A stretch of 64,000 nt of DNA from Escherichia phage DCP80. Shown piece after piece: positions 28,382 through 52,568 of the stretch; the first letter of the stretch is position 1, and the number at the start of each line of letters is the position of its first letter. The translations under genes were made by a program, and so were the position numbers. The stretch is from the sequence record PQ671644.1; one strand, given 5' to 3'. The notes below the pieces were generated by a model. The model was not told where the DNA came from. It saw only the letters and a list, made by a program, of their open reading frames with translations, and did not search any database.

Positions 28382-28576
28382 ATGAGAATTACAAGTTGGC
28401 TTAAAGATTGGTTGGTTACCCCGGGGATTGATGATTCCTGGGTGGCCAGAGCCGAGGAAGAAATGCAGCGCGAAGCTGAAGAATGGGCCGCCGCAAGCGT
28501 CAAAGATATGCAGGAAAAGAAGACCGAACGAGCTGTGCTTAAACTGATGCGTGATATCTACGGAGATAAATCATGA
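28382..28576 (+). CDS. hypothetical protein (64 aa)
   Basis: ATG directly after the preceding stop; acidic/helical. Confidence 0.45.
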
Positions 28577-28722
28577 CACAAGAAGAAGCTGAACGTCAGG
28601 CAAAAGAAGCACTGGATTTGCTTTTGAAAATTGGCAGTAAAATGATGGAAGAAAATGAAAAGTACATCAAGGAAAATAAAGTTCCTGATGGTCCATTAGT
28701 TGGTAAGAGGAAAACATTATGA
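28573..28722 (+). CDS. hypothetical small protein (49 aa)
   Basis: Short ORF read from sequence ([17 protein letters not shown]...); fills the gap between neighbours with start/stop overlaps; below ORF-track cutoff. Confidence 0.3.
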
Positions 28723-29207
28723 AAGTATATGAATTAGAATTCTATGTCCGTGATTCTGCTGGGCAAACACGACCTTACGATGCAACAGCCTGTCTTATCT
28801 TTGCATATAATGGCATGGATTCGGTTACTGAGTTGGAAACAAAATTAATGAACCTGACGATGCCAGAAAATGTCATGATGAAGGTATTTCATAACAAAAA
28901 CGTTAATGTGGCTGAAGGGTGTCCGTTTACTGTTTCCGAAGCTCTACACATTAAAGGCTATCGTCACCCGGACCCTTATGCAGAAGGTACTGCGGATATC
29001 TTCTATAAAGATACCGATAGAATTTCAGAAGAACGCCTTAAAGGTCGCACATATCTGATTTCCACTACCGACGACCTTGCTGAAGTTGAACGTCAGATTT
29101 GGAAGCACTTTGATATCGGTCTGCGCTTTACTTTAACAGAAGAAGCTATTCAAGATACTAAAATGCGTGCTCGTATGTATGGTTACGGTCCGATTGGTGG
29201 TTACTAA
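28719..29207 (+). CDS. hypothetical protein (162 aa; mrh position and size)
   Basis: T4 has mrh (161 aa) downstream of soc; assignment by position and length only. Confidence 0.45.
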
Positions 29208-29383
29208 TGGATTTATTTGAACTTTTTGAAGAGCCTAAAGCTCCCACAGAAGCCCGTGTGGACCTAGTTGACGAACTTGATGCGATTATACAGAAGCACG
29301 GTTTTAGTCTCCCATTGGAAGTTCTGCGCGACCTGGCCTCATATTACGACGACCCACCTCCATGGGCACCATGGAAACAGTAG
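29207..29383 (+). CDS. hypothetical small protein (58 aa)
   Basis: Short ORF ([13 protein letters not shown]...) with start overlapping upstream stop; below ORF-track cutoff. Confidence 0.3.
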   Translation: MDLFELFEEPKAPTEARVDLVDELDAIIQKHGFSLPLEVLRDLASYYDDPPPWAPWKQ

Positions 29384-29439
29384 TTTACTTACTCCCCTCC
29401 TAATGACATAATGACCTTTCTTACAACAGAGAGGTCATT

Positions 29440-29505
29440 ATGAACATCATCAAATCTGATACCGAACCCAACCAGTTAAAATTTAGTGAAATGGAGATAG
29501 CTTCA
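29440..29505 (+). CDS. hypothetical protein, N-terminal 22 codons (truncated by N-run)
   Basis: ATG 29440 with GAGAGG RBS embedded in a 10-bp inverted repeat. Confidence 0.35.
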
Positions 29506-29540: not shown

Positions 29541-29756
29541 ACTGAAGGCACAAGCCCCGGTGGCCAAGGTTCAAGTCAATCAGCAGGCCCTTCTAATGGT
29601 TCTGCACATGCATCACATTCTCAAGGTATAGAGAATATTAAATCCAGCTATGTAAATACCACTCACGGTAAAGCACAGGAAGCATGGGCGAAAGGTAGAG
29701 TAGTTACTGATTCTGTTTTCTGTCATATGCCAAAATATGTTGGTTGTAAGAAATAA
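29541..29756 (+). CDS. hypothetical protein, C-terminal 71 codons
   Basis: Stop-free frame from the gap to TAA at 29754 (..SAHASHSQGIENIK..CHMPKYVGCKK); may be the same gene as the 29440 fragment. Confidence 0.5.
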   Translation, partial: TEGTSPGGQGSSQSAGPSNGSAHASHSQGIENIKSSYVNTTHGKAQEAWAKGRVVTDSVFCHMPKYVGCKK

Positions 29757-29761
29757 TCTAA

Positions 29762-29783
29762 GGACCCTTCGGGGTCCTTTTTT
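29762..29783 (+). terminator. rho-independent terminator
   Basis: GGACCC-UUCG-GGGUCC followed by UUUUUU. Confidence 0.65.
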
Positions 29784-29796
29784 ATTTTAAAAAGTA

Positions 29797-29826
29797 GTGT
29801 ACAACCAGATGGTCATAAGACATAAT
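29797..29826 (+). promoter_or_regulatory. T4-type early promoter
   Basis: GTGTAC-18nt-CATAAT then GATTCCATACTGAGTTACC leader and GGAG RBS. Confidence 0.55.
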
Positions 29827-29867
29827 GATTCCATACTGAGTTACCAAATAAACAAACGGAGAATAAA

Positions 29868-30074
29868 ATGTTAGAATTAATCAAAGCTGCTGGTGAAAAA
29901 GGTCTGATGGTTAACACTCGTGACCCTGAGCAACGTCAAGCATTTGGTGAGTTAAAAGCCAAAGGTCTGGTTAAAGCATCCCTTGGTATTGGTAATGCTT
30001 TGCGTGTGACTTTGACCCCTGCAGGTAAAGCAATGTTCTTCCCTAAACCATTACCAAAACGTCGTCGCAAGTGA
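29868..30074 (+). CDS. hypothetical protein (68 aa), basic C-terminal tail
   Basis: ORF with GGAG RBS; ends KPLPKRRRK. Confidence 0.5.
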   Translation: MLELIKAAGEKGLMVNTRDPEQRQAFGELKAKGLVKASLGIGNALRVTLTPAGKAMFFPKPLPKRRRK

Positions 30075-30080
30075 GGAATT

Positions 30081-30383
30081 ATGAAGAAGTATGAACTTGA
30101 CATGATTGAGGCATGTCTGAAATCTGCTGACCATTTTAAGTTGAAAATGCACAAGTTAAGAGGAATGGTCAAAACTCCAGAAGAGAAGAAGCGATATGCT
30201 CTTAAGGAGAAATGTAAAGCTCTTATCATGATGGATAAGCTGCAAATGGTCGCCGCAGAAGCTCACAGGACACGTAAAGCCGAGGCCCTTGGTGTTTATA
30301 TGGCAGAGCAGCTTCATCGTGCACAGCAAGCCGTTAAGAGCGTCTGGTTCAGCGGTGAAAATACTGAAAGAACTTTTAATTAA
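30081..30383 (+). CDS. hypothetical protein (100 aa)
   Basis: ORF with GAGGAA RBS; helical, Lys-rich. Confidence 0.5.
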   Translation: MKKYELDMIEACLKSADHFKLKMHKLRGMVKTPEEKKRYALKEKCKALIMMDKLQMVAAEAHRTRKAEALGVYMAEQLHRAQQAVKSVWFSGENTERTFN

Positions 30384-30385
30384 AT

Positions 30386-30415
30386 GTGTACATAGTATGG
30401 GGATAGACGTATAAT
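30386..30415 (+). promoter_or_regulatory. T4-type early promoter
   Basis: GTGTAC-18nt-TATAAT then GTTCCCATACTGAGTTACC leader. Confidence 0.55.
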
Positions 30416-30451
30416 GTTCCCATACTGAGTTACCAAATACTGGAGAATAAA

Positions 30452-30976
30452 ATGGACGCAAAATCAATCTTTAATCTGATTAATTACAATAATGGTAATT
30501 TTAAATCAGAAGCGCAAAGCAAGTTCTTTAATGATGTTGCTTGTGCAGGTGAGATTACAGTATCAGGTGGTCAGACTTATAAAAACGCCTGGAACTGGAT
30601 TGTGACTGTTGATTCAGTTGGTATTGTTGATGTGTATAAAAACACCAACAAAAACCGCTCTTTGTTCTGGTCAAGAGAGACTAATGCAGAATATCAAGCG
30701 ACAAGAGCGAAGAAAAATATGCCTACTGAATCTGATGTACAAAACATCAAATCAGATATCCAATATTATGATGGTCTGATTGCTGAACAACAAGCGGTGC
30801 TTGATAAGTTCAATGAAATCAAGGCGTGTAAAGAGATTCCTGAATTCATGAGGGAATCAGTTAATGAACAATACAATCTCACTTCAGAGCGTATTGAAAC
30901 CTATACCAAACAAAGAGCAGAGCGCCAGGTACTCCTTCAGAAGTTTGAAGAGCGTTTAAAGACGGTTCTCGCATAA
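30452..30976 (+). CDS. hypothetical protein (174 aa)
   Basis: ORF with GGAG RBS; no family recognised. Confidence 0.55.
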   Translation: MDAKSIFNLINYNNGNFKSEAQSKFFNDVACAGEITVSGGQTYKNAWNWIVTVDSVGIVDVYKNTNKNRSLFWSRETNAEYQATRAKKNMPTESDVQNIKSDIQYYDGLIAEQQAVLDKFNEIKACKEIPEFMRESVNEQYNLTSERIETYTKQRAERQVLLQKFEERLKTVLA

Positions 30977-30978
30977 AC

Positions 30979-31002
30979 GCTTTATACCAAGGATGGTATA
31001 AT
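30979..31002 (+). promoter_or_regulatory. putative middle promoter (MotA-box-like GCTTTA + TATAAT)
   Basis: GCTTTA then 12 nt then TATAAT; shares CCAAGGATGG with the promoter at 32984. Confidence 0.45.
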
Positions 31003-31039
31003 GGTTCTGACCTTTGATTAATCTATTGAGGAAATTATT

Positions 31040-31882
31040 ATGTCACAAGCAATTAATGAAATTCGTTCTGAAGTTAAAAAAGTTATTAAATTTGGTCGTA
31101 TTCCAAGCACTAAAGATGTGGTTGAAAAGGTTCTATATATGATGTGGGACAAGTTCAATGTTTGTACTGTTAAAAATGACTTCACTAAAATCTTTGACAA
31201 GACTAAAGGTTCGTTTACATTAGAAGACCGAGTCATGAAAACTCTTCGTAAAACAGGTATGTTGTCTCGTGCTAATGCCAAAATTATTCTTAAAAAATAT
31301 AACAAAGGCTACGACCTTTATGGTCGTGCGATTAACACCATGACGTTTGATGAAGTGGTTAAAGACCTTCATGCCAACCAACGACGTTTACTAGCACTAG
31401 GTGCTCGCCTTGCAAAAGGTCAAGATAAACAAATGACCTTTAAAACCAATAATTCTTTAGATTATAAAGTATTCAATGTTATTAAAGGTCAAAATGAAGG
31501 CGAATACAGTATTTCTTCTTTTAGTGGTTGTCAATATGACAACTGGAAGTTCCATCTCCGATTGGCCTTGTCTGAATTAGAACAGCACGGTGTTCTTAGT
31601 TTTGGTGATGCCGAAACTGGAGCAGGTCAGCGTATTAAACTTTATAAAATTAAAGACCTGGCTGAAGACTCTTCAGAACAAGCTCCTAAAATGGAACCTG
31701 TTCCAGTGCGAAGCAATGAAAAATATTCAGAGCAAATTGAGCTTTTCACTAAACAGATTGAAGAGCTTAACATCACCATCCAGCAGCAAGATGATGAAAT
31801 TTTCCGCCTGTCAGGACTGAACGGCGCGGCAAAAGCTGAACGTCAGAAACTGATGGACGTTATTAAATTGCTTAAGGCTTAA
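31040..31882 (+). CDS. hypothetical protein (280 aa), coiled-coil C-terminus
   Basis: ORF with GAGGAA RBS; C-terminal heptad-like region. Confidence 0.55.
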   Translation: MSQAINEIRSEVKKVIKFGRIPSTKDVVEKVLYMMWDKFNVCTVKNDFTKIFDKTKGSFTLEDRVMKTLRKTGMLSRANAKIILKKYNKGYDLYGRAINTMTFDEVVKDLHANQRRLLALGARLAKGQDKQMTFKTNNSLDYKVFNVIKGQNEGEYSISSFSGCQYDNWKFHLRLALSELEQHGVLSFGDAETGAGQRIKLYKIKDLAEDSSEQAPKMEPVPVRSNEKYSEQIELFTKQIEELNITIQQQDDEIFRLSGLNGAAKAERQKLMDVIKLLKA

Positions 31883-31883
31883 T

Positions 31884-32099
31884 ATGACCATTTTGATTAT
31901 CAGTATTATTTTTGGTTATCTTGTGACGGGTTTTATTACTACCCTGTTGCTTCACAAGTTTGATAGTCCCTACGAAAGTGGGGACGAGTATGATGCGGTG
32001 TTCACAACATTTTGCTGGCCTATATTCTGGGTAGTCGCTGTTATAATGTGTGTGACCTGGCCTTTTGCTAAACTCTATGAAAAATTATTTGGACTATGA
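31884..32099 (+). CDS. small membrane protein (71 aa)
   Basis: Two hydrophobic helices (ILIISIIFGYLVTGFITTLLL; WPIFWVVAVIMCVTW). Confidence 0.5.
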   Translation: MTILIISIIFGYLVTGFITTLLLHKFDSPYESGDEYDAVFTTFCWPIFWVVAVIMCVTWPFAKLYEKLFGL

Positions 32100-32100
32100 T

Positions 32101-32982
32101 ATGAACATTAAAACACGTAAAGAATATTCTCGATTTGAACAGCGTGAAGGACGTGCAACCCGTCTTATCGCGATGAATTCTCTGGTTAACTTTGGCAAAA
32201 TCAAATCAGGTTCTGCCACCCAGGGGTATGGACAACGTATTGTAAGAATTAACTCTCTGAATGATTACTGCCGCCGCCCGGCGTTTTTGTTTGGTGCCAC
32301 AGTTCGTAAGAGCATCAAGGAAATCCTGGCCGCTGGACTTCGTATTCGTAAAGCTCCAGTTAACATCAAGAACTATAATTTTACCTCCAGTAACTTGATT
32401 ATCAATATCAAGAATGATGGTGTGCAGATTAAGTTCAAGCCAACCACCAAGGGTGATGTTGCTCTTTGTGATACCTTTAAAGAGGTTATGGGTATTGCGC
32501 TGTTTTATATGCGCCATGCTGTTGAAGCATACACGTTTGAAGAAGATACAAATTATATCCACCAAACGGAAAAATTCCTTAAAACTATAACCATTGATAT
32601 TAAATTGACTAAAGAATATCTTTTGTCTTACGCTCCTTATCAGGAGAAAAAGGAACCAGAAATGACAGAACGTATCCCTACCGCATCATATGGCCCAGCA
32701 TTTGCAGGTCAGTTTAAATCTTACGACCAGGCTAAAATTTCACCGTTGGACGTTAAAAACATGTACAAATGGAAAGTTCAACCATCCAGCTCTCTTGAAA
32801 TCTTTAACCCACCAATGAAGCCTATTGAGAGCTATCATGCTGATGCTATCCAGGAATCAGTCAACCGCTTAAATGGTCTGATTGAAGATGAGAAAAAGGG
32901 TATCCAGGATGTTCTGAATCGCATCAAGAACATGGAAACACAACGCAATAAATTGCAGGCGGCGATTTTAGCATTAAAATAA
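32101..32982 (+). CDS. hypothetical protein (293 aa)
   Basis: ATG 1 nt after upstream stop; track ORF starts earlier at 32065 in overlap. Confidence 0.55.
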   Translation: MNIKTRKEYSRFEQREGRATRLIAMNSLVNFGKIKSGSATQGYGQRIVRINSLNDYCRRPAFLFGATVRKSIKEILAAGLRIRKAPVNIKNYNFTSSNLIINIKNDGVQIKFKPTTKGDVALCDTFKEVMGIALFYMRHAVEAYTFEEDTNYIHQTEKFLKTITIDIKLTKEYLLSYAPYQEKKEPEMTERIPTASYGPAFAGQFKSYDQAKISPLDVKNMYKWKVQPSSSLEIFNPPMKPIESYHADAIQESVNRLNGLIEDEKKGIQDVLNRIKNMETQRNKLQAAILALK

Positions 32983-32983
32983 T

Positions 32984-33013
32984 GTTTACTTCCAAGGATG
33001 GAGGGAGTATAAT
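32984..33013 (+). promoter_or_regulatory. T4-type early promoter (consensus GTTTAC / TATAAT)
   Basis: GTTTAC-18nt-TATAAT followed by GAGGAG RBS. Confidence 0.55.
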
Positions 33014-33040
33014 GAATTCCTACTTTATGAGGAGAACACT

Positions 33041-33784
33041 ATGACACGTAACGAATATATCCAGGCCTTTAACGCAACTATCGACACAAAAGTAAAACCA
33101 TTGACAGGCGAATCGGCTATCCTTTTAATTATCAATTATTGGTTAAATCAGATTGATTCGACGATTGTTGCATCTGGTCGCTTCAAGAAAGACATTGCAA
33201 CTATTGCGAGTCGTGCCGGTAATGATGATATCAAGAAAACTTTTAAAGGTTCCAGAGTCCTGGCGTACCTGGTTAATAAAGACCTTCTTCATAAGTTTGG
33301 TGTTGAATCCAACCGCGGTAAAGGTACAATTGGGTATCATTGGTTTGGCGATGTTGAAAAATACTACCTTGATAAACAAGGCTATACTGTTTCTGAATTC
33401 GCACATTGCTGGGCTCGTGAATTCAGAGATAACAAAATGTCTATCATAAAATCAGCGACAAAATTGATGGGCGGTGATTTTCGCACTATCTCCCATTTGG
33501 CTGAGCACATGATAAAGGTTAAAGAGTCTGGTGAAAACCAGGTAATTATTACAGTTAAGCATGAGTTCTTTACGCCGGTGGCTACTCCAGAAAATGTCAA
33601 AAAGTATCTTGATGTTGCCTGTACGCTTTCTCATCAGCTGGTGTGTGCCCTTAACTATATGCGCACTGTTGAAAAAATTAAAGTAGACCCTATCACCAGT
33701 GCTCATGGTTGGAAAGGTTGGAAAATTGTGGTGACATTACCGACGATGAAGATGAGGACGATGAATAATGTTTATTATCCCTGA
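33041..33784 (+). CDS. hypothetical protein (247 aa) at the position of T4 genes 20/67
   Basis: ORF overlapping the gene 68 start by 17 nt; no resemblance to portal gp20 or gp67 noticed. Confidence 0.55.
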
Positions 33785-34196
33785 TGATTACGAATTAACT
33801 CTTGAAAACATTGAAAGTGTTTCCGAAGAAGCTCAGGGACAATTTGATTCATTATCTGAAGCCTTAGAAAAAGACGATATAAATATTATTGTAGAAAACA
33901 TGTTTGCAGCCGGTGAATACGAAAAAGCAACGGTTATCGGCGCTCTGAATGAAGGTGTTCAGCTTAACGAATTTATCGTTAAACATGTATCGTCTCGCGG
34001 TGAGTTAACCCGCACAAAAGACCGAGCTACTCGTAAGCGTAATGCTTTCCAAACAACTGGTCTTTCTAAAGCTAAACGTCGTCAAATTGCCCGTCTGGCT
34101 ACTAAAACGAAAAGAGCAAACCCATCTACGCAAATCAGAGCAGAGCGCAAGCGCAAAAAAGCTCGAGCTAAGCGTAAAGCATTCGGACTTGATTAA
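33768..34196 (+). CDS. 68: prohead core protein gp68
   Basis: 142 aa (T4 gp68 is 141 aa), basic C-terminal tail; immediately upstream of gene 21 as in T4. Confidence 0.7.
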
Positions 34197-34834
34197 TGGA
34201 ACAGAAACCAGAGTTACTAATCGAACACTGGGGTCAACCGGGCGAAATTAAAGATGGTGTACCGATGTTGGAATCTCATGATGGTTCCAGCAGCGGTTTA
34301 AAGCCAGGACTTTATATTGAAGGTATTTTCCTACAAGCTGAAGTTGTTAACCGTAATAAACGACTTTATCCTAAACATATTTTGGAAAAAGCCGTTGCGG
34401 ACTATATCGCCGAACAGGTTGAAACCAAGCAGTCTCTTGGAGAATTAAACCATCCACCTCGCGCAAACGTTGACCCTATGCAGGCAGCAATTATTATCGA
34501 GGAAATGTGGTGGAAAGGGAATGATGTATATGGCCGCGCGCGTATTATCGAAGGCGACCATGGCCCAGGTGATAAACTTGCTGCGAATATAAGAGCAGGT
34601 TGGATTCCTGGTGTATCTAGTCGTGGACTTGGTTCCTTGACTAAATCAGCAAAAGGTTATAGCATCGTTAATGAAGGTTTTAAATTGACGGTTGGAGTAG
34701 ATGCAGTATGGGGGCCAAGTGCTCCGGACGCTTGGGTCAAACCAAAGCAGATTACAGAATCACAAACGGCAGTTGCCGATACCAGTGCCGATGACGCCTT
34801 TATGGCTCTCGCAGAGGCTTTAAAGACGTTATAA
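34196..34834 (+). CDS. 21: prohead protease gp21
   Basis: 212 aa; matches T4 gp21 closely (GQPGEI.DGVPMLESHDG, LKPGLYIEGIF.QAEVVNRNKRLYPK, GELNHPPRANVDP, GDHGPGDKLAANIRAGWIPGVSSRGLGSL). Confidence 0.93.
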   Translation: MEQKPELLIEHWGQPGEIKDGVPMLESHDGSSSGLKPGLYIEGIFLQAEVVNRNKRLYPKHILEKAVADYIAEQVETKQSLGELNHPPRANVDPMQAAIIIEEMWWKGNDVYGRARIIEGDHGPGDKLAANIRAGWIPGVSSRGLGSLTKSAKGYSIVNEGFKLTVGVDAVWGPSAPDAWVKPKQITESQTAVADTSADDAFMALAEALKTL

Positions 34835-34837
34835 ATA
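34830..34837 (+). promoter_or_regulatory. late promoter TATAAATA for gene 22
   Basis: Exact TATAAATA overlapping the gene 21 stop, 30 nt upstream of the gene 22 ATG. Confidence 0.55.
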
Positions 34838-34866
34838 AATGTATATCTTAACAACAGGACTACAAA

Positions 34867-35685
34867 ATGCTTAAAGAACAACTCATTTCTGAAGCTCAGA
34901 ATATCGATGCTTCCGTTGCTCTTGATAGTATTTTCGAATCAGTTAATTTGTCCCCGGAAGCGAAAGCTACCTTCGGCACTGTATTCGAAGCTACCGTCAA
35001 GCAACACGCCATCAAACTGGCAGAATCTCACATTCACGCCATCGCTGAAAAAGCTGAAGAAGAAGTCGAAAAGAATAAAGAAGAAGCCGACGAAAAAGCA
35101 GAGAAAAAACTGAAAGAATCTGCAGCTAAATTCCTGGACCACGTTGCTAAAGAATGGCTCGCTGAAAATAAACTGGCTGTCGACCGCGGCATTAAAGCTG
35201 ACCTGTTCGAATCCATGTTCACCGGCATGAAAGAACTGTTCGTTGAGCACAACGTTGTTGTTCCAGAAGAATCTGTCGATGTTGTTGCAGAAATGCAGGA
35301 AGAACTGGCTGAACAGAAAGAAGAAACCGCTAATCTGTTCGAAGAAGTTGCTAAGCGTGATGCTTATATCAATTATGTCCAACGTGAAGTTGCGTTGACT
35401 GAAGCGACTAAAGACCTGACTGAATCCCAAAAAGAAAAAGTTGGTTCTCTGGTAGAAGGCATGGAATACTCTGATGCATTCGGTACCAAAATTGGCGCTA
35501 TCGTTGAAATGGTTAAAGGTCAGGTAGAACCCACCAACAAACCAATCACCGAAGCCGCTATAAATAAAAATGTAGACGATGCTGCGGCACTGAATTACAT
35601 TTCAGAAGCAGTTGAAGAAAAAGGCGCCAAGCCTACCCTGTCCTTCGCGGACTTGTCTGCTCTCGCAGCATCACGAATTTCTTAA
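34867..35685 (+). CDS. 22: prohead core scaffold protein gp22
   Basis: 272 aa, acidic helical protein between 21 and 23 (T4 gp22 269 aa). Confidence 0.85.
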   Translation: MLKEQLISEAQNIDASVALDSIFESVNLSPEAKATFGTVFEATVKQHAIKLAESHIHAIAEKAEEEVEKNKEEADEKAEKKLKESAAKFLDHVAKEWLAENKLAVDRGIKADLFESMFTGMKELFVEHNVVVPEESVDVVAEMQEELAEQKEETANLFEEVAKRDAYINYVQREVALTEATKDLTESQKEKVGSLVEGMEYSDAFGTKIGAIVEMVKGQVEPTNKPITEAAINKNVDDAAALNYISEAVEEKGAKPTLSFADLSALAASRIS

Positions 35686-35706
35686 TTTAATAAGGTTATA
35701 CAACAC

Positions 35707-37266
35707 ATGAAAAAGAATGCATTAGTTCAAAAATGGTCCGCTCTGTTGGAAAACGAAGCTCTTCCGGAAATCGTTGGTGCTTCTAAACAAGCTATCATCG
35801 CTAAAATCTTTGAAAACCAGGAACAAGATATTCTGACCGCTCCTGAATACCGTGACGAAAAAATCTCCGAGGCATTTGGTTCTTTCCTGACCGAAGCTGA
35901 AATCGGTGGTGACCATGGTTATGATGCTACCAATATCGCTGCTGGCCAGACCTCTGGTGCAGTAACTCAGATTGGGCCGGCAGTTATGGGCATGGTTCGT
36001 CGTGCTATCCCGCATCTGATTGCGTTTGATATTTGTGGCGTACAGCCTCTGAACAACCCGACTGGCCAGGTATTTGCCCTGCGTGCAGTATACGGTAAAG
36101 ACCCTGTAGCTGCTGGTGCTAAAGAAGCTTTCCACCCGATGTATGCTCCGAACGCTATGTTCTCTGGTCAGGGCGCTGCTGAAGCTTTTGAAGCACTGGC
36201 TGCAAGCAAAGTTCTGGAAGTTGGTAAAATTTATTCTCACTTCTTCGAAGCAACCGGTTCTGCACACTTCCAGGCTGTTGAAGCTGTAACTGTTGATGCT
36301 GCTGCTACTGATGCCGCTAAACTTGACGCCGAAGTTACCAAACTGCTCGAAGCTGGTAAGCTGGCCGAAATCGCTGAAGGTATGGCTACCTCTATCGCCG
36401 AATTGCAGGAAGGCTTCAACGGTTCTACTGATAACCCGTGGAACGAAATGGGCTTCCGTATCGATAAACAAGTTATCGAAGCTAAATCCCGTCAGCTGAA
36501 AGCAAGTTACTCCATCGAACTGGCACAGGACCTGCGCGCTGTTCATGGTATGGATGCTGATGCCGAATTGAGTGGTATTCTGGCTACCGAAATTATGCTG
36601 GAAATCAACCGCGAAGTTATCGATTGGATTAACTACTCCGCACAGGTTGGTAAATCTGGTATGACCAACACCGTTGGCGCTAAAGCTGGTGTGTTTGACT
36701 TCCAGGACCCGATTGATATCCGTGGCGCTCGTTGGGCTGGTGAAAGCTTCAAAGCCTTACTGTTCCAGATTGATAAAGAAGCCGCTGAAATCGCTCGTCA
36801 GACTGGCCGTGGTGCAGGTAACTTCATCATCGCTTCCCGTAACGTAGTTAACGTGCTGGCTGCTGTTGATACTTCTGTTAGTTATGCTGCTCAGGGTCTG
36901 GGTAAAGATTTCAACGTTGACACCACTAAAGCTGTGTTCGCCGGTGTTCTGGGTGGCAAATACCGTGTATACATCGACCAGTATGCTCGTGCAGACTATT
37001 TCACCATCGGTTATAAAGGCGCTAACGAAATGGATGCTGGTATCTACTACGCACCATATGTTGCACTGACCCCGCTGCGTGGCTCTGACCCGAAAAACTT
37101 CCAGCCGGTTATGGGCTTCAAAACCCGTTACGGTATCGGTATCAACCCGTTTGCTGACCCTGCTGCTCAGGCTCCGACCAAGCGCATTCAGAACGGCATG
37201 CCGGACATCGTTAACAGCCTTGGCTTGAACGGTTACTTTAGACGTGTATATGTTAAGGGAATTTAA
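35707..37266 (+). CDS. 23: major capsid protein gp23
   Basis: 519 aa; near-identical to T4 gp23 over most of its length (GASKQAIIAKIFENQE, GQTSGAVTQIGPAVMGMVRRAIP, ...FRRVYVKGI). Confidence 0.97.
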   Translation: MKKNALVQKWSALLENEALPEIVGASKQAIIAKIFENQEQDILTAPEYRDEKISEAFGSFLTEAEIGGDHGYDATNIAAGQTSGAVTQIGPAVMGMVRRAIPHLIAFDICGVQPLNNPTGQVFALRAVYGKDPVAAGAKEAFHPMYAPNAMFSGQGAAEAFEALAASKVLEVGKIYSHFFEATGSAHFQAVEAVTVDAAATDAAKLDAEVTKLLEAGKLAEIAEGMATSIAELQEGFNGSTDNPWNEMGFRIDKQVIEAKSRQLKASYSIELAQDLRAVHGMDADAELSGILATEIMLEINREVIDWINYSAQVGKSGMTNTVGAKAGVFDFQDPIDIRGARWAGESFKALLFQIDKEAAEIARQTGRGAGNFIIASRNVVNVLAAVDTSVSYAAQGLGKDFNVDTTKAVFAGVLGGKYRVYIDQYARADYFTIGYKGANEMDAGIYYAPYVALTPLRGSDPKNFQPVMGFKTRYGIGINPFADPAAQAPTKRIQNGMPDIVNSLGLNGYFRRVYVKGI

Positions 37267-37280
37267 TCCTTAATAAATTT

Positions 37281-37310
37281 AAGGGACTCTTCGGAGTCCC
37301 TTTCTTGTTT
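37281..37310. terminator. bidirectional terminator between gene 23 and convergent small gene
   Basis: GGGACUC-UUCG-GAGUCCC hairpin with U-runs on both strands. Confidence 0.6.
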
Positions 37311-37592
37311 TCATACCATACCATTTAAATGAACTTCTACCCGGCGCTTGATGAGGTCTCTGAAGTTAACATTGTTTTCTTGAAGTTTCAACCAATTACC
37401 ATTTTTATCTTTAGTGTGAGTAGAATAATTACCATTCCACCAGAAATCAGTGTCATATGCTAAGTTTTCATATTTTTTAACTAGTTTGTTCAGAGCATTA
37501 CCATTAACACCATTTGGGTATTTGTTGACCAATGCAATAACTTCAATTTCCAGATTTTTAAAGGTGTTCAGAAGGAAAGTTGATTTGTTCAT
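37311..37592 (-). CDS. hypothetical protein (93 aa), early gene antisense to the late capsid operon
   Basis: ORF with GGAG RBS and own early promoter between genes 23 and 24 (segD position in T4, but no GIY-YIG motif). Confidence 0.5.
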   Translation of the reverse strand: MNKSTFLLNTFKNLEIEVIALVNKYPNGVNGNALNKLVKKYENLAYDTDFWWNGNYSTHTKDKNGNWLKLQENNVNFRDLIKRRVEVHLNGMV

Positions 37593-37629
37593 TTTTAAAC
37601 TCCATTGTTTGGTAACTCAGTATGGAATC

Positions 37630-37659
37630 ATTATGTCTTATCTTAATCTGGTTGTAAAC
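37630..37659 (-). promoter_or_regulatory. T4-type early promoter
   Basis: Minus strand GTTTAC-18nt-CATAAT then GATTCCATACTGAGTTACC leader. Confidence 0.5.
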
Positions 37660-37665
37660 AACTTT

Positions 37666-37673
37666 TATAAATA
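37666..37673 (+). promoter_or_regulatory. late promoter TATAAATA for gene 24
   Basis: Exact TATAAATA about 27 nt upstream of the gene 24 ATG. Confidence 0.6.
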
Positions 37674-37699
37674 AAGTATATCACAAAAGGAAAGCGCAA

Positions 37700-37899
37700 A
37701 TGGCAAAGATTAACAAATTACTGCGCGAGTCAACTACCACTACCAGCAACTCCTTGGGCCGCCCGAATCTTGTTGCTTTGACCCGCGCTACAACCAAATT
37801 GATTTACCGCGATATTATCGCTGAACAACGTACAAGCCAGCCAGTTGCGGCGCTGTATGGTGTTAAATATCTTACTCCTGATAATGAATTCAGTTTCCA
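37700..37899 (+). CDS. 24: head vertex protein gp24, N-terminal 66 codons (truncated by N-run)
   Basis: MAKINKLLRESTTT.SNS.GRPNLVALTRATTKLIY.DI matches the T4 gp24 N-terminus. Confidence 0.88.
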
Positions 37900-37940
37900 N
37901 NNNNNNNNNNNNNNNNNNNNNNNNNNNNNNNNNNNNNNNN
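37900..37940. other. N-run (scaffold junction)
   Basis: 41 n. Confidence 0.95.
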
Positions 37941-38023
37941 TTCCCGGTCGCATTATCTTTAAAAATTCTATCAAGAAGTCCAAAAAGTAGGTCTGATAAT
38001 GAAAATCCTACTTTTGGTTCCAT
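37941..38023 (-). CDS. t: holin t, N-terminal 27 codons (second copy, truncated by N-run)
   Basis: Identical to 20301..20383. Confidence 0.75.
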
Positions 38024-38042
38024 ACTTTTCTCCTTTAAAGAT

Positions 38043-38050
38043 ATTTATAA
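38043..38050 (-). promoter_or_regulatory. late promoter TATAAATA for gene t
   Basis: Identical to 20403..20410. Confidence 0.6.
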
Positions 38051-38063
38051 TGCTTTTGCGCTA

Positions 38064-38615
38064 CTATTTTTTAAACCATCTTTTGAAGAATGATTTTTTC
38101 TCTTTTTCTGGCCAAGCCGGGAATTCACCACCGAGGTGTTCGTGTTTTTCTAAAAGAGCAAAGAAACGTTTAAGATTCTGGTGATAGAATTTTTCTTTCT
38201 TATCGGCGACTGAGGCTTCAACCATATTACTTAATACCTGGAATTCTTTATACAAATCGTCAATTTTTCGATTGCGAATCATTACTCGTTTATATGTTTC
38301 ATCTTCTTTCCAGCCATCATCTGTCCATATATCAAACTCGCCAGGTTTATCGAAAGTTATACCGACTGGGCTTCCTATGTCATTTATTAAGATTTCTTCT
38401 TTATTAAAAGTCCATGCACGTTTGCCTCGATGGTCTTCTTCATAAATCCAATCTTGAATGCGTTCGTCAAATACAACGGCATACCCTTCTTTAGGTTCTA
38501 AAGGTTTTTTAGCTGTTGAATGGGCCGGAAGGCCAAGGCCTTTAATGGGTTTATAATTTTCTTCTTTGTAGAATTCTTTTGTGTCAAAATAAAAATGATA
38601 AATTTTCATATTCAA
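38064..38615 (-). CDS. 38: gp38, T4 type (tail-fiber assembly chaperone, not a virion adhesin)
   Basis: 183 aa (as T4 gp38); near-identical to T4 gp38 (KIYH.YFDTKEFYKEENYKP.KGLGLPAHST.KKPLEPKEGYAVVFDER.QDWIYEEDHRGKRAWTFNKEEI). Confidence 0.9.
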   Translation of the reverse strand: MNMKIYHFYFDTKEFYKEENYKPIKGLGLPAHSTAKKPLEPKEGYAVVFDERIQDWIYEEDHRGKRAWTFNKEEILINDIGSPVGITFDKPGEFDIWTDDGWKEDETYKRVMIRNRKIDDLYKEFQVLSNMVEASVADKKEKFYHQNLKRFFALLEKHEHLGGEFPAWPEKEKKSFFKRWFKK

Positions 38616-38636
38616 AAGGGGCCGAAGCCCCTCTCC

Positions 38637-41600
38637 TTATGCTAAACGAACGATATAGTTAAAAGCAATGTTTTTAACCGTGTTTTCTGTATTACCTGTA
38701 CTATTTACGGTAATGGTATGCCCATGTGAACCAATCGCTACAGTATGAGTGTGAGCACCGATACCTACCGTATGCGTGTGAGCACCAATACCTACAGTAT
38801 GAGCGTGGTTACCTGTGGCACTTGTGGTCCCTGACCAACTATGAGTATGAGCACCGTCTGAAGAAGTTTTGGCTATATTCGACCCTGCAGTAGCACCGCT
38901 CACGGTTCCAGTGATTTTAGCGTTGGCGTTTGCACCTACACTATTATATCCGTCATAGAATATGTTATTGGGTACGCCGGCTTGCATCTGAGGGCCTGAA
39001 CGCGCGTGTTGGTGTGCTCCGGCTGAACTGGTAGTACCACTCACTGTATGGTTATGGTTACCGGTGGTATTACTGGTCTTAGTACCATAATCAAAGCTTG
39101 AAGATGTTTTAGTGCCATAATCAAAGCTTGATGTGGTTTTAGTACCCAAGTCAGTACTCGAAGCAGATGCGCCATGGTTATGAGACTTAATACCATCAGC
39201 TTCTGCACTCAACACTGCGCGGCCACTTGGTTTACCCTTGATAGTTTGTCCACGCATATCAGGAATAGTACCAGAAGGATATGCAACAGCAAGCTTAGGA
39301 TAAGCACCTGTATCAAAGGTCTGACCTTCCATCAAAGCATAACCATTAGGAGGAGTATCCGTTGGCCATGGAATTGGGGCTCCAATAGGATAACTTGAAA
39401 CAATATCAGTTTTAAGTGATTCAATTGTACTGTTTAAGTTAGCAAAGTTACCAGAGCCACCGGTGATATTACCATCAGTTCCTAAAGTTGTGTTGCCTAC
39501 AATAATTTTACCAGGTAAGCGGAAGTCACCGGTGCGGCGGAATTCCCAACTTAAATCAGTTCCGGTAGTACTATTGCCCTGGTGATAATGAACGCGGAAG
39601 TCTCCTTGAGAAATTAAGGTGCCAATAGAATAAGTGCTATCACCATTTACATACCGTTGTTTAACAATAGGAATGTATTCAGAAGTAGCAGTACGCTCTA
39701 TATTCATATAAATTGGAGCCCTGACATCTGCGTAATTCTGAGATGCAAACGAACCAGCTCCTGCTGGGCGTACCGTATCAGTACATTCGGCCTCAATATA
39801 TGTCGACTGCCCCAATTTCATTCTAAAATTGGCATTAATGCGAGAGTTACTGTTTATCGTAGTTAAAGCATTATTTTGATCTACTATAAAAGAATCTCTT
39901 CCTAATCCAACCATACCATCGTTTAATCCTATTCTCACAGGTCTCAAAGAGCTGTGAATGTCTCCACTTTCGCCTTCATTTTGATTGGTTGGAAGAATAT
40001 AAAAGTTACTTTCTGAACGACGGAAAATAGCGCCATATTCAGCATTCCAAATTCTTAATGCATCTGCTGTTCCACCAATTTTTACTTGTCCGGTAATAGA
40101 AGAACCACCTTGGACAAACAAACCGTTAGACATAGTAACATTGCCACCAAAAGAACCTGTACCGGAGGCACTTATATTTCCAAGGCCTATGATATGGTCT
40201 GTTTCAACAGCTCCGTTAAATTTAAAGTTAACTGGACCTACTGTTTGACCTGACGCAGGATTAGTACGTTGAGCGTAGAAATAATAACCTTGTGAATCTG
40301 AAACTTCGAATACAGTTTCTCTATTACCGCCACCTGTATTAAATGAATTACCCCACGCTTTAATAGATATATAGTTTTTATTCTGTCCTGCGCGAGTACC
40401 AGCGCCCCACAGTATAGTTTTAGTGCCATCTAATGATGTAGGTGCATCAAGTTGAATACCGTCAGCTCTAGCCCCGGTAAGAAGTACCCCGTTATCAAAT
40501 TTAATTCTTTGAATAGAAGAAATAGTGCCGTCAGCATAAAGCTGTACATTATTAGCGCCGGTTACCAGTTTAAGAATACCTGGGTTAAGTTCCATGCCTT
40601 CTTGGGTGTTAATATTGGTTTGACCTCTACCGCGGAAATAGTGCGACATTTTTCCGCCAGAGTTATAACCAATATGCGTCTGACCATCGCCAGCTGTATT
40701 CCCGTCAGCCTGAGTTTGAGCTGATAAAAATGCAGCATTGGTTCCAGGCATAATCCATGTGGTGCCTTGGTCTTCTGAACGACCAAATAAACCTTTACGA
40801 GTACTACGGAAACTATCTGGAGTAATAGAAGCAACTGAATTCCCTGAACCAACTAAATCATAAACACCGGTTTTTTTGTATGACAGCCCCGTCCCGTTAT
40901 CGCCTAGAGCTAAATAAACACCGAATCCTAAAGCGGCACCATTACCATAGTCGCTTGACGGGTATCCTTCAGTCACAGTACCAATGGCCAAGCTATTGCG
41001 AACAATCATTCTGCCGTCATTACGAATACCATATAGTTTATATGTTGGTGTATTACCAGACCACCAAGAAACCTCATCAGCTTGGCCTAATTGGGCCGTA
41101 CAAATTTCATGATACATTGTACCACCAGACTTGGCGCGAACTTTACGAAGATAGTTTACACCATTCGTTTCGCCTGTGCCTGGGTATGTATATTTAACTA
41201 ATGAATCAGTGTCATATACACCAAATGCTTTGGCATCGTGAATAACTGTATCAGCTGCAATGCGTTTTGTTAATAACGCATCCGAAGCTAAAATACGGTT
41301 AGCCTGAAATTCACCGCCGTTTATAGAACGGAAATAGAATTCACTATTAGCAGTGCCTTCTGTCCCCTGTTTAAGCCTAATGCGTAATTCACCAGCATTT
41401 GTAGTTTGAGGGCGAGTATATATAACACCACGTTCAGTGCCATCGGCATTTTCAAACCAAAGGTGGGCATTTGACGTATCGTTTGTTGCTCTTGAATAAA
41501 ACGAACCCTGTAATGCTCTAAAAGTTTGAGCCGAAATACTCGTGCCTGCTGTAATCGACCCGCTTGTGGAAAAGTTTCCAAAATTGTTTAATGGGCCATT

Positions 41601-41810
41601 AATGCGTAAAGTTCCAGTAATAGTTACATCGCCATCAACTTGTCCACCTTTTGCAAAGCCCAAATCAATAATCTGTCCCTGGTCGGACTTGGTAAAAATA
41701 GTGCGGTCACGCAAGTTAATAGCCAGTTCGCCTTCATCTAACTGAGCTGCAGTAGGCTTGGCTCCTGGTGTTTTACTTCTTTTAAATTGTATCGATTTTA
41801 AAGTAGCCAT
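38637..41810 (-). CDS. 37: long tail fiber distal subunit gp37, T4 type (His-x-His C-terminal tip)
   Basis: 1057 aa; matches T4 gp37 from MATLK.IQFKRSK to the [48 protein letters not shown]-terminus. Confidence 0.95.
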
Positions 41811-41818
41811 AATGCCTC

Positions 41819-42023
41819 TTAATAATATCCAAAATCTTCAGATGTACCTCTAAGAACAACCTGGTCAATACGAGGAACGTGTTCGTTCAATGTTCCTGGG
41901 TTCCTAGATATGAAATTCGGGGCTGAAAGAACACCAGCCATAGATTGTATGTTACTATTATTTATTTGGACCTGTTTTGCGTTATCCACATCACTTAATC
42001 CAACTTGTGCTTTTGTCGGGGTA
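41819..42023 (-). CDS. 36: tail fiber protein gp36, C-terminal fragment
   Basis: Stop-free frame from the N-run to a stop 8 nt upstream of the gene 37 start; assignment by position. Confidence 0.6.
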
Positions 42024-42080
42024 NNNNNNNNNNNNNNNNNNNNNNNNNNNNNNNNNNNNNNNNNNNNNNNNNNNNNNNNN
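42024..42080. other. N-run (scaffold junction)
   Basis: 57 n. Confidence 0.95.
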
Positions 42081-42254
42081 ATTAACCCAGCCAAAGACCA
42101 TCCGGTTTGGCGTGAATGTGTTGAGCAAGGGTTTATCTATGTTCACTTTATGTCTAAGTTTAAACCAGATGGGCGAATGAGATTTGTGTTCACTTATCAC
42201 AAACGCCTGGATTTGCTTTTGGAAGATGTGGCATATAATAGAGCCAACGACTAA
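42081..42254 (+). CDS. hypothetical protein, C-terminal fragment (gene upstream of ligase)
   Basis: Stop-free frame from the gap to a stop at 42254, 3 nt before the ligase ATG. Confidence 0.4.
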   Translation: MNPAKDHPVWRECVEQGFIYVHFMSKFKPDGRMRFVFTYHKRLDLLLEDVAYNRAND

Positions 42255-50000: not shown

Positions 50001-50119
50001 GACTATAAATTATGGAATCTTTCCGTTCTTTCTTACTGAAGTATTCTGGGTTAACAAAAGGCCAAAGACCTTAGAACCATTATACACAGTAAAAATAAAA
50101 GCGTTAAAGGCAAAAAGTA

Positions 50120-50148
50120 GTGTACATAAAAGATGAATAGTATATAAT
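50120..50148 (+). promoter_or_regulatory. T4-type early promoter (second copy of 9037..9065)
   Basis: GTGTAC-17nt-TATAAT then GATTCCGTACTGAGTT leader. Confidence 0.5.
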
Positions 50149-50195
50149 GATTCCGTACTGAGTTATTCAATCGTCCGTAAGATGAGAAAAATATC

Positions 50196-50942
50196 ATGAC
50201 TTTATCAAAAACCAAAACGCTGAAAGTTAAACGTCGTCTGGAACACACTCAAGCTTCCGCTAAACGTCGCGGTAAGGACTTTAACCTGGATTTTGATTAT
50301 CTGGTTAACATTCTTGACCAAAAAGTTTGTGCTTATTCTGGTGAGACATTTAATAACTCTATTGAAGGTGAGAAGTTATCATTAGAGCGTTTTAACAATG
50401 ATATTGGTTATATCAAGGGTAATGTTATTCCTGTTAAAAAGAAATACAATACCATGCGTTCTGATTGGACCCTGGATGAGCTTAAACAACGCCGTGATGA
50501 TGTTGCTGTAAAAATTGCTCGCCCTTCTGCCAAGAAGATTGATAAGTTAAATCTGACTGCAGAGAAATGGGAACAGATTAAAAAGTCATATACTCATATC
50601 AAGAACATCCAGCATAAACGTGATAATCGCGTTAAGCATTATGCTCAAATGAGTAAATCAGAGCAGTCCAAAGAAAACCAATTAAAAATGGTTGCTCTGA
50701 AGGCTCGCATTGATGGTTCCCGTGTTGCGGAAGGTCATGAGCTTACTAAATTGAACGTTTTGCTCAAAGGCAATGACTGGAAAGTTACCAAGAAATTAAC
50801 TGATGCTGAAACGCTTTTTGATTGCTATGATAAAATCATTCAAGGTCTTGAGCGTTTTGAGAAGATTGGTTTTATTGGTAAATTAAAACTGAAACGTGGT
50901 CTGCCTTTGAACGCGTCAATTTTTAAACTGATTAGAGGTTAA
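50196..50942 (+). CDS. hypothetical protein (248 aa) at the srd position, diverged copy
   Basis: About 55% identical to 8247..8990 with identical last ~25 aa; flanks near-identical. Confidence 0.55.
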   Translation: MTLSKTKTLKVKRRLEHTQASAKRRGKDFNLDFDYLVNILDQKVCAYSGETFNNSIEGEKLSLERFNNDIGYIKGNVIPVKKKYNTMRSDWTLDELKQRRDDVAVKIARPSAKKIDKLNLTAEKWEQIKKSYTHIKNIQHKRDNRVKHYAQMSKSEQSKENQLKMVALKARIDGSRVAEGHELTKLNVLLKGNDWKVTKKLTDAETLFDCYDKIIQGLERFEKIGFIGKLKLKRGLPLNASIFKLIRG

Positions 50943-50943
50943 T

Positions 50944-51243
50944 GTGATGTACTACGCATATGTGCTAGTCTACAAAGATAAAGATGGTTTTGAACATCCA
51001 TTGGAGTATGATGGAAAGGTGACCTTATACACCACAAAAGTGGGCGCAGAATATGAACTTGCCAACTATTCATATACTACAAAACGCTATTTAAGTATGG
51101 GACGTATTGAAACACGGTATATTCCCAGAAAATGGTGGTTTGATAAGCGTGAAACAAAAACAGTTTTTCCTACTGAAGAACGTGCCCGCGAACTGAAATT
51201 AATTTTAGATACTTTATATGTTAAGCGAGTAAAATTGGCATGA
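50944..51243 (+). CDS. hypothetical protein (99 aa; dda.1 position), second copy
   Basis: 93% identical to 7946..8245. Confidence 0.5.
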   Translation: MMYYAYVLVYKDKDGFEHPLEYDGKVTLYTTKVGAEYELANYSYTTKRYLSMGRIETRYIPRKWWFDKRETKTVFPTEERARELKLILDTLYVKRVKLA

Positions 51244-52568
51244 TTAAATTTGAAGACTTGAACACAGGACAAAAAGAAGCTTTTGATTATATCACTGAAG
51301 CTATTCAGCGACGTTCGGGGGAATGTATCACTCTGAATGGCCCAGCTGGCACAGGTAAGACCACTCTGACAAAATTTGTCATTGACCACTTAGTGCGTAA
51401 TGGAGTTATGGGAATTGTGCTTGCTGCACCAACTCACCAGGCGAAAAAAGTTTTATCTAAATTGTCTGGTCAAACGGCGAATACAATCCATAGTATTCTG
51501 AAGATTAACCCGACCACATATGAAGACCAAAACGTTTTTGAACAGCGCGAAATGCCTGACATGTCAAAATGCAATGTTCTGGTTTGTGATGAAGCAAGTA
51601 TGTATGACGGGGCTCTGTTTAAGATTATTCTTAACTCTGTTCCTGAATGGTGTACTATTCTTGGGATTGGTGATATGCACCAGCTGCAACCAGTTGACCC
51701 AGGAAGTACACAACAAAAGATAAGCCCATTCTTTACGCATCCTAAGTTCAAACAGATTCATCTGACTGAGGTCATGCGAAGCAATGCTCCTATCATTGAA
51801 GTGGCGACAGAAATTCGTAATGGTGGCTGGTTCCGTGACTGTATGTATGATGGTCATGGTGTGCAGGGTTTTACCTCACAAACCGCTTTAAAGGATTTCA
51901 TGATAAACTATTTCGGTATTGTAAAAGATGCTGATATGTTGATGGAAAACCGGATGTATGCGTACACGAATAAATCAGTTGAAAAACTGAACAATATCAT
52001 TCGCCGTAAGCTCTATGAAACAGATAAAGCATTTTTACCGTATGAAGTCCTGGTTATGCAAGAGCCACACATGAAAGAGCTGGAATTTGAAGGCAAGAAA
52101 TTCAGCGAAACCATTTTTAATAATGGTCAGTTGGTTCGCATCAAGGATTGCAAATACACTTCCACAATTCTCCGTTGTAAAGGCGAATCGCACCAGTTGG
52201 TGATTAATTACTGGGACCTGGAAGTTGAGTCAATTGATGAAGATGAAGAATATCAGGTTGACCGCATCAAAGTTTTACCAGAAGACCAGCAACCAAAATT
52301 CCAGGCATACCTGGCTAAAGTTGCTGACACATACAAACAGATGAAAGCCGCTGGTAAACGTCCAGAGTGGAAAGACTTCTGGAAAGCTCGCCGGACCTTC
52401 TTGAAAGTTCGTGCTCTTCCGGTCAGTACAATCCATAAGGCACAGGGTGTTTCAGTGGACAAAGCATTCATCTATACTCCATGCATCCATATGGCCGAAG
52501 CTTCATTAGCGAGCCAGTTGGCTTATGTAGGAATCACACGAGCGAGGTACGACGCATATTATGTATAA
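51240..52568 (+). CDS. dda: Dda DNA helicase, second copy
   Basis: Differs from 6621..7949 by a single residue (V to I). Confidence 0.92.
   Translation: MIKFEDLNTGQKEAFDYITEAIQRRSGECITLNGPAGTGKTTLTKFVIDHLVRNGVMGIVLAAPTHQAKKVLSKLSGQTANTIHSILKINPTTYEDQNVFEQREMPDMSKCNVLVCDEASMYDGALFKIILNSVPEWCTILGIGDMHQLQPVDPGSTQQKISPFFTHPKFKQIHLTEVMRSNAPIIEVATEIRNGGWFRDCMYDGHGVQGFTSQTALKDFMINYFGIVKDADMLMENRMYAYTNKSVEKLNNIIRRKLYETDKAFLPYEVLVMQEPHMKELEFEGKKFSETIFNNGQLVRIKDCKYTSTILRCKGESHQLVINYWDLEVESIDEDEEYQVDRIKVLPEDQQPKFQAYLAKVADTYKQMKAAGKRPEWKDFWKARRTFLKVRALPVSTIHKAQGVSVDKAFIYTPCIHMAEASLASQLAYVGITRARYDAYYV

Follow-up and report, generated by a model that had tools for sequence, protein, structure and literature searches.

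The 64,000-nt window of the Escherichia phage DCP80 record (PQ671644.1) that was analysed here contains a standard T4-type distal tail-fibre module, carried on a single contig of 4,083 bp (37941..42023) that comprises the 3' end of gene 36, genes 37 and 38 and the start of gene t. The T2-type cassette present elsewhere in the window is very probably an alternative allele of the same locus, contributed by a second, closely related phage that was co-assembled with the first. The window was made by stringing contigs together with padding, and each cassette sits on a contig of its own.

The arrangement of the window is apparent from its gaps. It consists of 15 contigs sorted by length and joined by N padding, and the end coordinates of all its 14 N-runs equal 20 modulo 60, including those of the run that separates the T4-type contig from the previous one (37900..37940) and of the run that follows it (42024..42080). 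One junction, at 33740/33741, has no padding at all, and there the piece (c7) jumps from position 127565 to position 15239 of Gaprivervirus P896. The lengths of the pieces decrease strictly from the second onwards, the first being cut by the start of the window. The pieces map to scattered places and to both orientations of P896, while most of the window is colinear, contig by contig, with the T4-like genes of this phage. The N-runs are line padding and not the sized, ordered and oriented joins of a single scaffold. As the contigs are ordered by length and padded with N, adjacency in the window carries no linkage, and the claim of the original prediction that the two cassettes belong to the same scaffold fails on all these counts. 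The main worth of the analysis is this caution: N-padded, length-sorted concatenations make the alleles of co-assembled strains resemble duplicated cassettes in one genome. They also give rise to artefactual open reading frames that run through the padding. The start proposed for the T2-type gp37, at 25241, is wrong for this reason, the 1329-aa reading frame being a chimera across the N-run at 25005..25040.

The T4-type cassette is encoded on the minus strand. Its gene 37 (38637..41810) is complete, and the product, a T4-type distal long-tail-fibre subunit of 1057 aa with a C-terminal tip of collar, needle and head, is identical to T4 gp37 at 758 of 1064 aa (71%) from end to end, the N-terminal part that adjoins gp36 included. 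It matches PHROG 1699 (2.3e-265) and Pfam Collar (1.3e-10), and its tip, the last 278 aa (aa 780-1057), matches the crystal structure of the T4 tip (PDB 2XGF, 2xgf_A; E=3.2e-92). Eight HxH motifs are present. Pfam detected no Peptidase_S74 domain in this protein, unlike in the companion gp37, and the C-terminus is the T4-type ending. The original prediction of a gp37 with a T4-type C-terminus is thus borne out by full-length homology as well as by the match of the tip. By analogy with T4, gp37 would form a trimeric, metal-binding fibre that binds the receptor.

Between gene 37 and t, immediately after the former, lies the gene for gp38 (38064..38609, minus strand), the T4-type tail-fibre assembly chaperone of 181 aa. 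The predicted protein is identical to T4 gp38 at 159 of 180 aa (88%) and matches PHROG 105, 'tail fiber assembly' (2.9e-43). Pfam gave nothing at all for it, neither GP38 nor Gp38_N, the adhesin families, so its identity rests on the direct comparison with T4 and on PHROGs; NCBIfam likewise returned nothing for any of the four cassette proteins. Translation almost certainly begins at the ATG at 38609 (MKIYH..., as in T4) and not at the TTG at 38615. The earlier claim that a T4-type chaperone follows gp37 holds. The glycine-rich adhesin domain typical of T2/T6-type gp38 is absent, and gp38 is predicted to be a non-structural protein that assists the trimerisation of gp37 and stays outside the virion.

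The short region between the two genes (38610..38636, minus strand) contains a GGAG, a GGGGC-UUCG-GCCCC hairpin and then the AUG of gene 38; the fold has a predicted energy of -17.4 kcal/mol (z = -2.7). In T4, the hairpin at gene 38 brings the Shine-Dalgarno sequence close to the AUG. At one end the contig cuts the holin gene t, of which only the first 83 nt (27 codons) are present (37941..38023, minus strand; ATG at 38023..38021). This fragment gives a weak match to Pfam Phage_holin_T and is 100% identical to the start of the P896 holin. Upstream of it, the region 38030..38049 on the same strand, read directly, contains the box TATAAATA (38049..38042) and a Shine-Dalgarno GGAG (38033..38030). 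The box is a putative late promoter, as it fits the T4 late-promoter consensus. At the other end the contig cuts gene 36, the hinge connector, whose 3' end (41819..42023, minus strand) is colinear with gene 36 of phages 04086, P896, C6 and IME341.

The companion contig (20301..25004, minus strand) has the corresponding order, with the start of t (20301..20383), a gene for a gp38 adhesin of 266 aa (20420..21220) and a gene 37 truncated by 117 nt at its 5' end (21252..25004). The gp38 matches the Pfam GP38 adhesin (3.6e-67) and PDB 6F45, and the gp37 ends in a Peptidase_S74 chaperone domain; these matches confirm that the gene set at 20420..25004 is of the T2 type. The relationship between the two gp37 genes is looser than had been claimed. 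The 5' third was said to be near-identical at the DNA level, which is overstated: where the 5' parts can be aligned (1,446 nt) they are 75.6% identical, and identity is ~90% only in the first ~600 nt, falls to 60-75% up to nt ~1550 of the gene and gives way to unalignable sequence beyond ~1800. A recombination breakpoint between the alleles, which had been proposed for mapping, is not to be seen there, since identity decays gradually with no sharp edge. The reading frames at 24629..24892 and 41321..41581, described as antisense and almost the same, are alike to the extent of 79% aa identity, and they lie on the gp37 strand in another frame.

One sign of a mixed sample is at the starts of the cassette contigs. 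Both of them (c5, T2-type, and c8, T4-type) open on the same base, and their first 111 nt (20301..20411 and 37941..38051) are identical, as expected of a shared node of the assembly graph. This junction k-mer covers the putative late promoter, the ribosome-binding site and the first 83 nt of t; the identity starts 2 nt upstream of the late-promoter box. Gene t is the only flank directly seen to be common to both cassettes; the remainder of t lies outside the window, as do asiA and genes 35 and 36. For the right end of the T2-type contig (25004), the window contains no matching 111-mer. Two further contigs are redundant, c11 being 95.5% identical to c2 and c13 96.6% identical to c6, and both terminal 111-mers of c11 and c13 are present exactly inside c2 and c6. 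Such 111-nt end overlaps together with duplicate contigs are the signature of the arms of de Bruijn bubbles in the assembly of a mixed population, and the window combines sequence from two or more related phages of Gaprivervirus-like backbone that were assembled together. The suggestion of two co-assembled phage variants in the original prediction is thus supported. Exact 40-mers of both cassettes had no match in IMG/VR, nor had the T4-type 40-mer among GTDB genome contigs, and no contig encoding the exact protein was found for either the T4-type gp37 or the T2-type gp38 adhesin of the companion contig.

In complete genomes the order of genes is asiA, t, 38, 37, 36, 35, 34. The T4-type cassette occupies this locus in 04086, P896, C6, VR25 and T4, and the T2-type cassette occupies it in IME341 and fDHCT2; all complete relatives examined have a single cassette there.

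The T4-type contig is itself a mosaic of tracts near-identical to phages of two genera. A long tract (38885..41998, minus strand) is almost identical to Dhakavirus 04086, with 0 mismatches in 38885..39490 and 1 mismatch in the 2,248 nt of 39751..41998; the 260 nt between these segments (39491..39750) form a C6-like patch inside the 04086-like tract. The end with t and gp38 resembles P896, from which it differs by 2 mismatches in 500 nt (99.6%), with 99-100% nucleotide identity over 38041..38440. Between them, 38466..38884 (~420 nt, the His-box end of gene 37 and the 5' end of gene 38) differs from every reference compared. Sharp tract edges are seen only against these external references. A return to P896-like sequence in the last 25 nt of the contig would mark the right-hand recombination edge, but this stretch has just 2-3 informative sites, and their signal is mixed. 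The mosaic suggests recombination events that joined a Gaprivervirus-like t/gp38 end to a gene 37 that is mostly like that of Dhakavirus 04086. The 'recombination-driven host-range switch' proposed originally survives in the evolutionary sense only, as a two-genus mosaic, there being no sign of a programmed switch or of a genome with two cassettes.

A fuller reading, which we put forward tentatively, is that the sample represents a natural population of near-identical Gaprivervirus-like phages that was polymorphic at the distal tail-fibre locus, one member having a T2-type and another a T4-type cassette next to one and the same allele of t. Gene 37 of the T4 type would then have come very recently from a Dhakavirus lineage (1 mismatch in 2.2 kb, as against ~73% identity for the backbone). 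One edge of the exchange would fall where genes 36 and 37 join, a conserved stretch, and the other in the His-box region that closes gene 37 at its 3' end. This would, if true, be a snapshot of the transfer of a host-range module between genera while under way.

It is also conceivable, but improbable, that the T4-type contig comes from a third phage in the sample, a 04086-like Dhakavirus, and not from the Gaprivervirus-like backbone. Such an origin would suit the sequence of gene 37 and of the gene 36 end, which is 99.96% identical to 04086 over 39751..41998; the gene 36 end also has Dhakavirus-type bases at five variable sites. The P896-like end with t and gp38 does not fit, being only 66-94% like 04086, and neither does the exact 111-mer common to both cassette contigs. 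Furthermore, there is no Dhakavirus-like backbone contig among the 15 pieces, a weak point as only 64 kb of the record are visible. Less probable again is that the mosaic is an assembly chimera, in which the assembler passed from a P896-like to a 04086-like genome through a stretch common to both near the 3' end of gene 37. The assembly demonstrably holds several strains, and the change of affinity falls within 38441..38740, which is conserved in all T4-type cassettes and 90-97% identical to both references. A join at k = 111, however, needs 111 identical nucleotides in both parents, and the two references have none here. Nor is there a clean switch from 100% identity with one parent to 100% with the other, as the segment from 38466 to 38884 differs from both references at shared positions, and the second, C6-like patch shows natural patchwork.

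That one genome has both cassettes, and either builds two sorts of long tail fibre or alternates between them, is most improbable of all, even though some unrelated phages carry dual or invertible receptor-binding modules: only the joint presence in one record speaks for it, whereas each cassette adjoins the identical first 111 nt of t, in one orientation, and a single t can have only one such neighbour, the complete relatives examined have one cassette each, and a single genome would leave the 95-97% duplication of other loci unexplained. A programmed switch, by invertible cassettes of the Mu/P1 type or by a diversity-generating retroelement, finds no support in the layout of the cassettes; they lie on separate contigs with the same t start, and all matches between these contigs are direct, with no inverted repeats.

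Under the preferred reading, that of two alleles from two co-assembled phages, the observations can be accounted for as follows. The T4-type gp37 would trimerise to form the distal half-fibre, its C-terminal needle stacking His-x-His metal sites and carrying at its end a small, receptor-contacting head domain. In T4 this receptor is OmpC or LPS. Folding would depend on gp38, a chaperone acting together with the unlinked gp57A; gp38 would be required for trimerisation and would not be found in the virion. In the phage with the T2-type allele, gp37 would instead carry its own self-cleaving S74 chaperone domain, and the gp38 adhesin would cap the fibre. The assembler probably output the two alleles as separate bubble arms, and the record was then made by joining all contigs by length with N padding. 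Among T-even phages, mosaics such as the T4-type allele are known to arise when modules are exchanged by way of conserved flanks and motifs.

Modular exchange at the distal tail-fibre locus of T-even phages has long been known (Tetart et al. 1998, as cited in PMC3157838). PMC3157838 contrasts the T4 arrangement, in which the C-terminus of gp37 is the adhesin and folds with the help of gp38 and gp57, with the predominant one, in which gp38 is the adhesin, and describes the swapping of modules at this locus. The present mosaic is one more case of such documented exchange of receptor-binding modules among T-even phages and brings no new mechanism. Exchange of this kind is of use when therapeutic phages are chosen or engineered.

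The distal fibre of the T2/T6/S16 type, with the intramolecular chaperone of gp37 and the gp38 adhesin (PDB 6F45), is encoded at the same locus, from gene 36 to t, and the two types share a conserved N-terminal stretch of ~200 aa in gp37. The T4-type gp38, in contrast, is unrelated to the adhesin, and the T4-type gp37 itself bears the receptor-binding tip. Among Gaprivervirus phages, P896, VR25 and 212 have backbones 95-98% identical to the other contigs of the window and a T4-type cassette at the same locus. The near-identity with P896 covers t and the 3' portion of the gp38 gene, but its gene 37 is only 82% identical overall, and that of phage 212 only 72%; in both, the likeness is a patchwork of windows with 40-100% identity. 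Escherichia phage 04086 (OR842557.1) matches the whole T4-type contig at 96.7% nucleotide identity and in gene order, differing at the gp38 and t end, and is 70-77% identical to the rest of the window, with short segments up to 86%, so that the backbone of the window belongs to another genus. Judged by sequence, the T4-type gp37/gp38 pair is an ordinary one that is already catalogued: gp37 of 04086, there named 'host-recognition protein', is identical at 1042 of 1057 aa (99%), with a downstream gp38 that is unannotated. Genes 37 and 38 of T4 (NC_000866) have the same locus and architecture, with collar and needle conserved and the last 44 aa of gp37 identical. T4 gp37 has seven HxH motifs, one fewer than the protein described here, whose needle has insertions of 10 aa in one limb and 9 aa in the other. 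The head segment, which would contact the receptor, is longer than that of T4 and has an unrelated sequence, which means that the receptor may differ from the OmpC or LPS used by T4. This variant of the head is a common one, and about 40 phage genomes encode it at >90% aa identity.

Two complete genes occupy the minus strand at 38064..41810. The product of 38637..41810 (1057 aa) is 71% identical to T4 gp37 over a full-length alignment, hits PHROG 1699 ('long tail fiber protein distal subunit'; 2.3e-265) and, over its final 278 residues, matches the receptor-binding tip of T4 gp37 as solved by crystallography (2XGF; E=3.2e-92). Its C-terminus is that of T4 gp37, the protein as a whole is 99% identical to one in GenBank, and a Pfam search found a Collar domain but not Peptidase_S74. 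Upstream, gene 37 adjoins the 3' end of gene 36. Downstream on the same strand lies gene 38, whose start is better placed at the ATG at 38609 than at the TTG at 38615; its product shares 159 of 180 aa (88%) with T4 gp38, matches PHROG 105 ('tail fiber assembly') and gave no adhesin domain in the Pfam search. Beyond gene 38 the sequence runs through a late-promoter box (TATAAATA) and a Shine-Dalgarno sequence into the holin gene t, of which the first 83 nt are present. Given these matches and flanking features, the gene content of the original prediction is correct. By homology to T4, gp37 would form the distal half-fibre as a trimer, its tip a needle organised around His-x-His metal sites with a head domain on top contacting the receptor, and gp38 would serve as folding chaperone.

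The 27-nt spacer between the two genes (38610..38636, minus strand) consists of GGAG and then, immediately before the AUG, a GGGGC-UUCG-GCCCC hairpin (-17.4 kcal/mol, z = -2.7). This C(UUCG)G tetraloop structure stands between the Shine-Dalgarno GGAG and the AUG of gene 38, an arrangement that we take as the split ribosome-binding site known from gene 38 of T4.

The window contains 14 runs of N (10 to 58 nt), each ending at a coordinate equal to 20 modulo 60, and its pieces begin at 21 modulo 60, all except the first, which the window start cuts. From the second piece on, lengths drop monotonically (5239, 5230, 5205, 4704, 4465, 4200, 4159, 4083, 4050, etc.), and the 4200-nt piece, an exact multiple of 60, has no Ns after it. 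Mapped on the Gaprivervirus P896, the pieces are scattered and lie in both orientations, and across the join at 33740/33741 the P896 coordinate shifts from 127565 to 15239. The window is therefore a set of assembler contigs sorted by length, padded to fill 60-column lines and joined one after another; neither the neighbours of a piece nor its orientation carries information. As the join has no Ns, the apparent piece 29541..37899 is two unrelated contigs, one from the nrd/thioredoxin region and one with prohead and major capsid genes. ORFs running across padding or joins (21252..25241, 19490..20383, 37730..38023 and 41819..42094) are artefacts, and the 1329-aa ORF at 21252..25241 was rejected as a gene for this reason. 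The T4-type cassette lies on the contig 37941..42023 and the T2-type cassette on a separate one, 20301..25004, so that the two do not share a scaffold as had been claimed.

Comparison of the window pieces with one another revealed redundancy. Contig 50001..53696 matches 4521..9759 at 95.5%, and 57141..60514 matches 25041..29505 at 96.6%; the terminal 111-mers at both ends of each shorter contig have exact copies inside the longer ones. The two cassette contigs have exactly their first 111 nt in common, ending on the same base. Exact overlaps of this one fixed length mark the contigs as bubble arms of a de Bruijn graph, and the assembly therefore contains at least two closely related phages, which the original prediction had offered as one of two alternatives, with 50001..53696 and 57141..60514 as arms of the second strain. 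Both cassettes leave the same node in gene t and so are alleles of one locus. The order in the complete genomes examined is always asiA, t, 38, 37, 36, 35, 34, with the T4-type cassette in 04086, C6, P896, VR25, 212 and T4, and the T2-type in IME341 and fDHCT2. The apparent second cassette arises from the assembly of mixed strains and the joining of contigs; the T4-type cassette is real as a gene identification and ordinary, with a textbook architecture, and both types were already documented among close relatives.

The first 117 nt of gene 37 are missing from the T2-type contig. From there the alleles have about 90% identity for ~600 nt, falling to 60-75% up to gene nt ~1550, beyond which come a short 83% island and an unalignable remainder. 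The 5' third is thus not near-identical, and alignment gave a gradient instead of the proposed distal breakpoint. The supposed antisense ORFs 24629..24892 and 41321..41581, said to be almost the same, are read from the strand that encodes gp37, in a different frame, and share 79% aa identity.

The other window contigs are 95-98% identical to Gaprivervirus phages, among them P896, SP18, PSD2001 and 212, and only 70-77% identical to the Dhakavirus 04086 (short segments up to 86%). Against reference phages the contig 37941..42023 reads as a patchwork. The t start and the 3' part of gene 38 (37941..38440) have two mismatches to P896; across 38466..38884, where gene 38 has its 5' end and gene 37 its His-box end, the sequence differs from all references; 38885..39490 is identical to 04086; 39491..39750 has 27 mismatches to 04086 and is 97-99% identical to C6; and 39751..41998 has one mismatch to 04086. 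It is possible that a third, 04086-like phage was the source of this contig, but its P896-like end at t and gp38 and the 111-mer shared with the other cassette contig speak against this. An assembly chimera is unlikely, as the transition zone shows differences from both references and a second foreign patch is present. For practical purposes a single genome with both cassettes can be excluded: each of the two adjoins an identical t start with matching orientation, duplication occurs at other loci too, and none of the relatives examined has two cassettes.

Other features deserve mention. Between contigs 50001..53696 and 4521..9759, 50488..50791 and 8398..8695 are unalignable and 50001..50487 is only 79% identical; this small segment close to srd/modA is hypervariable. 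The T2-type gp38 adhesin (20420..21220, minus strand) has a conserved N-terminal part; its glycine-rich hypervariable C-terminal part has only 50-66% nt identity to the closest genomes, and the closest full-length match in 50,697 phage records reaches 64% aa identity. It is a new specificity variant within a known adhesin family. A dispersed intergenic repeat of ~85-120 nt (29754..29872, 30376..30454; L003 140-224, 1300-1382, 17571-17691 and 21701-21782) is 76-89% identical to several intergenic places in P896 and may belong to the PeSL (promoter-early stem-loop) type known from T4-like phages. A 222-aa ORF after the tail sheath gene (56210..56878, plus strand) has no match of at least 300 nt to P896 at its position and a weak, below-cut-off treble-clef zinc-finger match (Pfam DUF4379, E=7.6e-4); a mobile, nuclease-like element inserted between genes 18 and 19 is one possible reading.

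The gp37 tip (38637..38900, minus strand; aa 877-1031) carries eight HxH motifs against seven in T4. Relative to T4 the needle limbs have matching insertions, of 10 aa on one and 9 aa on the other, and these matching duplications (the shorter VGIGAHTHT) occupy the ascending and descending limbs. The head segment of T4 is shorter and of other sequence. All Dhakavirus and Gaprivervirus T4-type gp37 proteins examined have the eight-motif form, and the head variant occurs in ~40 phage genomes of several genera at >90% aa identity. Phage 212, with a backbone very similar to that of the window, has the head-domain sequence in common but little of the shaft. The duplications are reminiscent of His-box duplications that reportedly broaden the T4 host range (Tetart 1996, as cited in PMC3157838).

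Two regions are conserved across all relatives, the junction of genes 36 and 37 and the promoter-t segment, and homology-based exchange is expected there. In T4 the adhesin is the C-terminus of gp37, folded with the aid of gp38 and gp57, but the predominant form at the tail-fibre locus is that with a gp38 adhesin, and shuffling there proceeds via conserved motifs (PMC3157838, citing Tetart et al. 1996, 1998); the mosaic of the T4-type contig fits this published picture.
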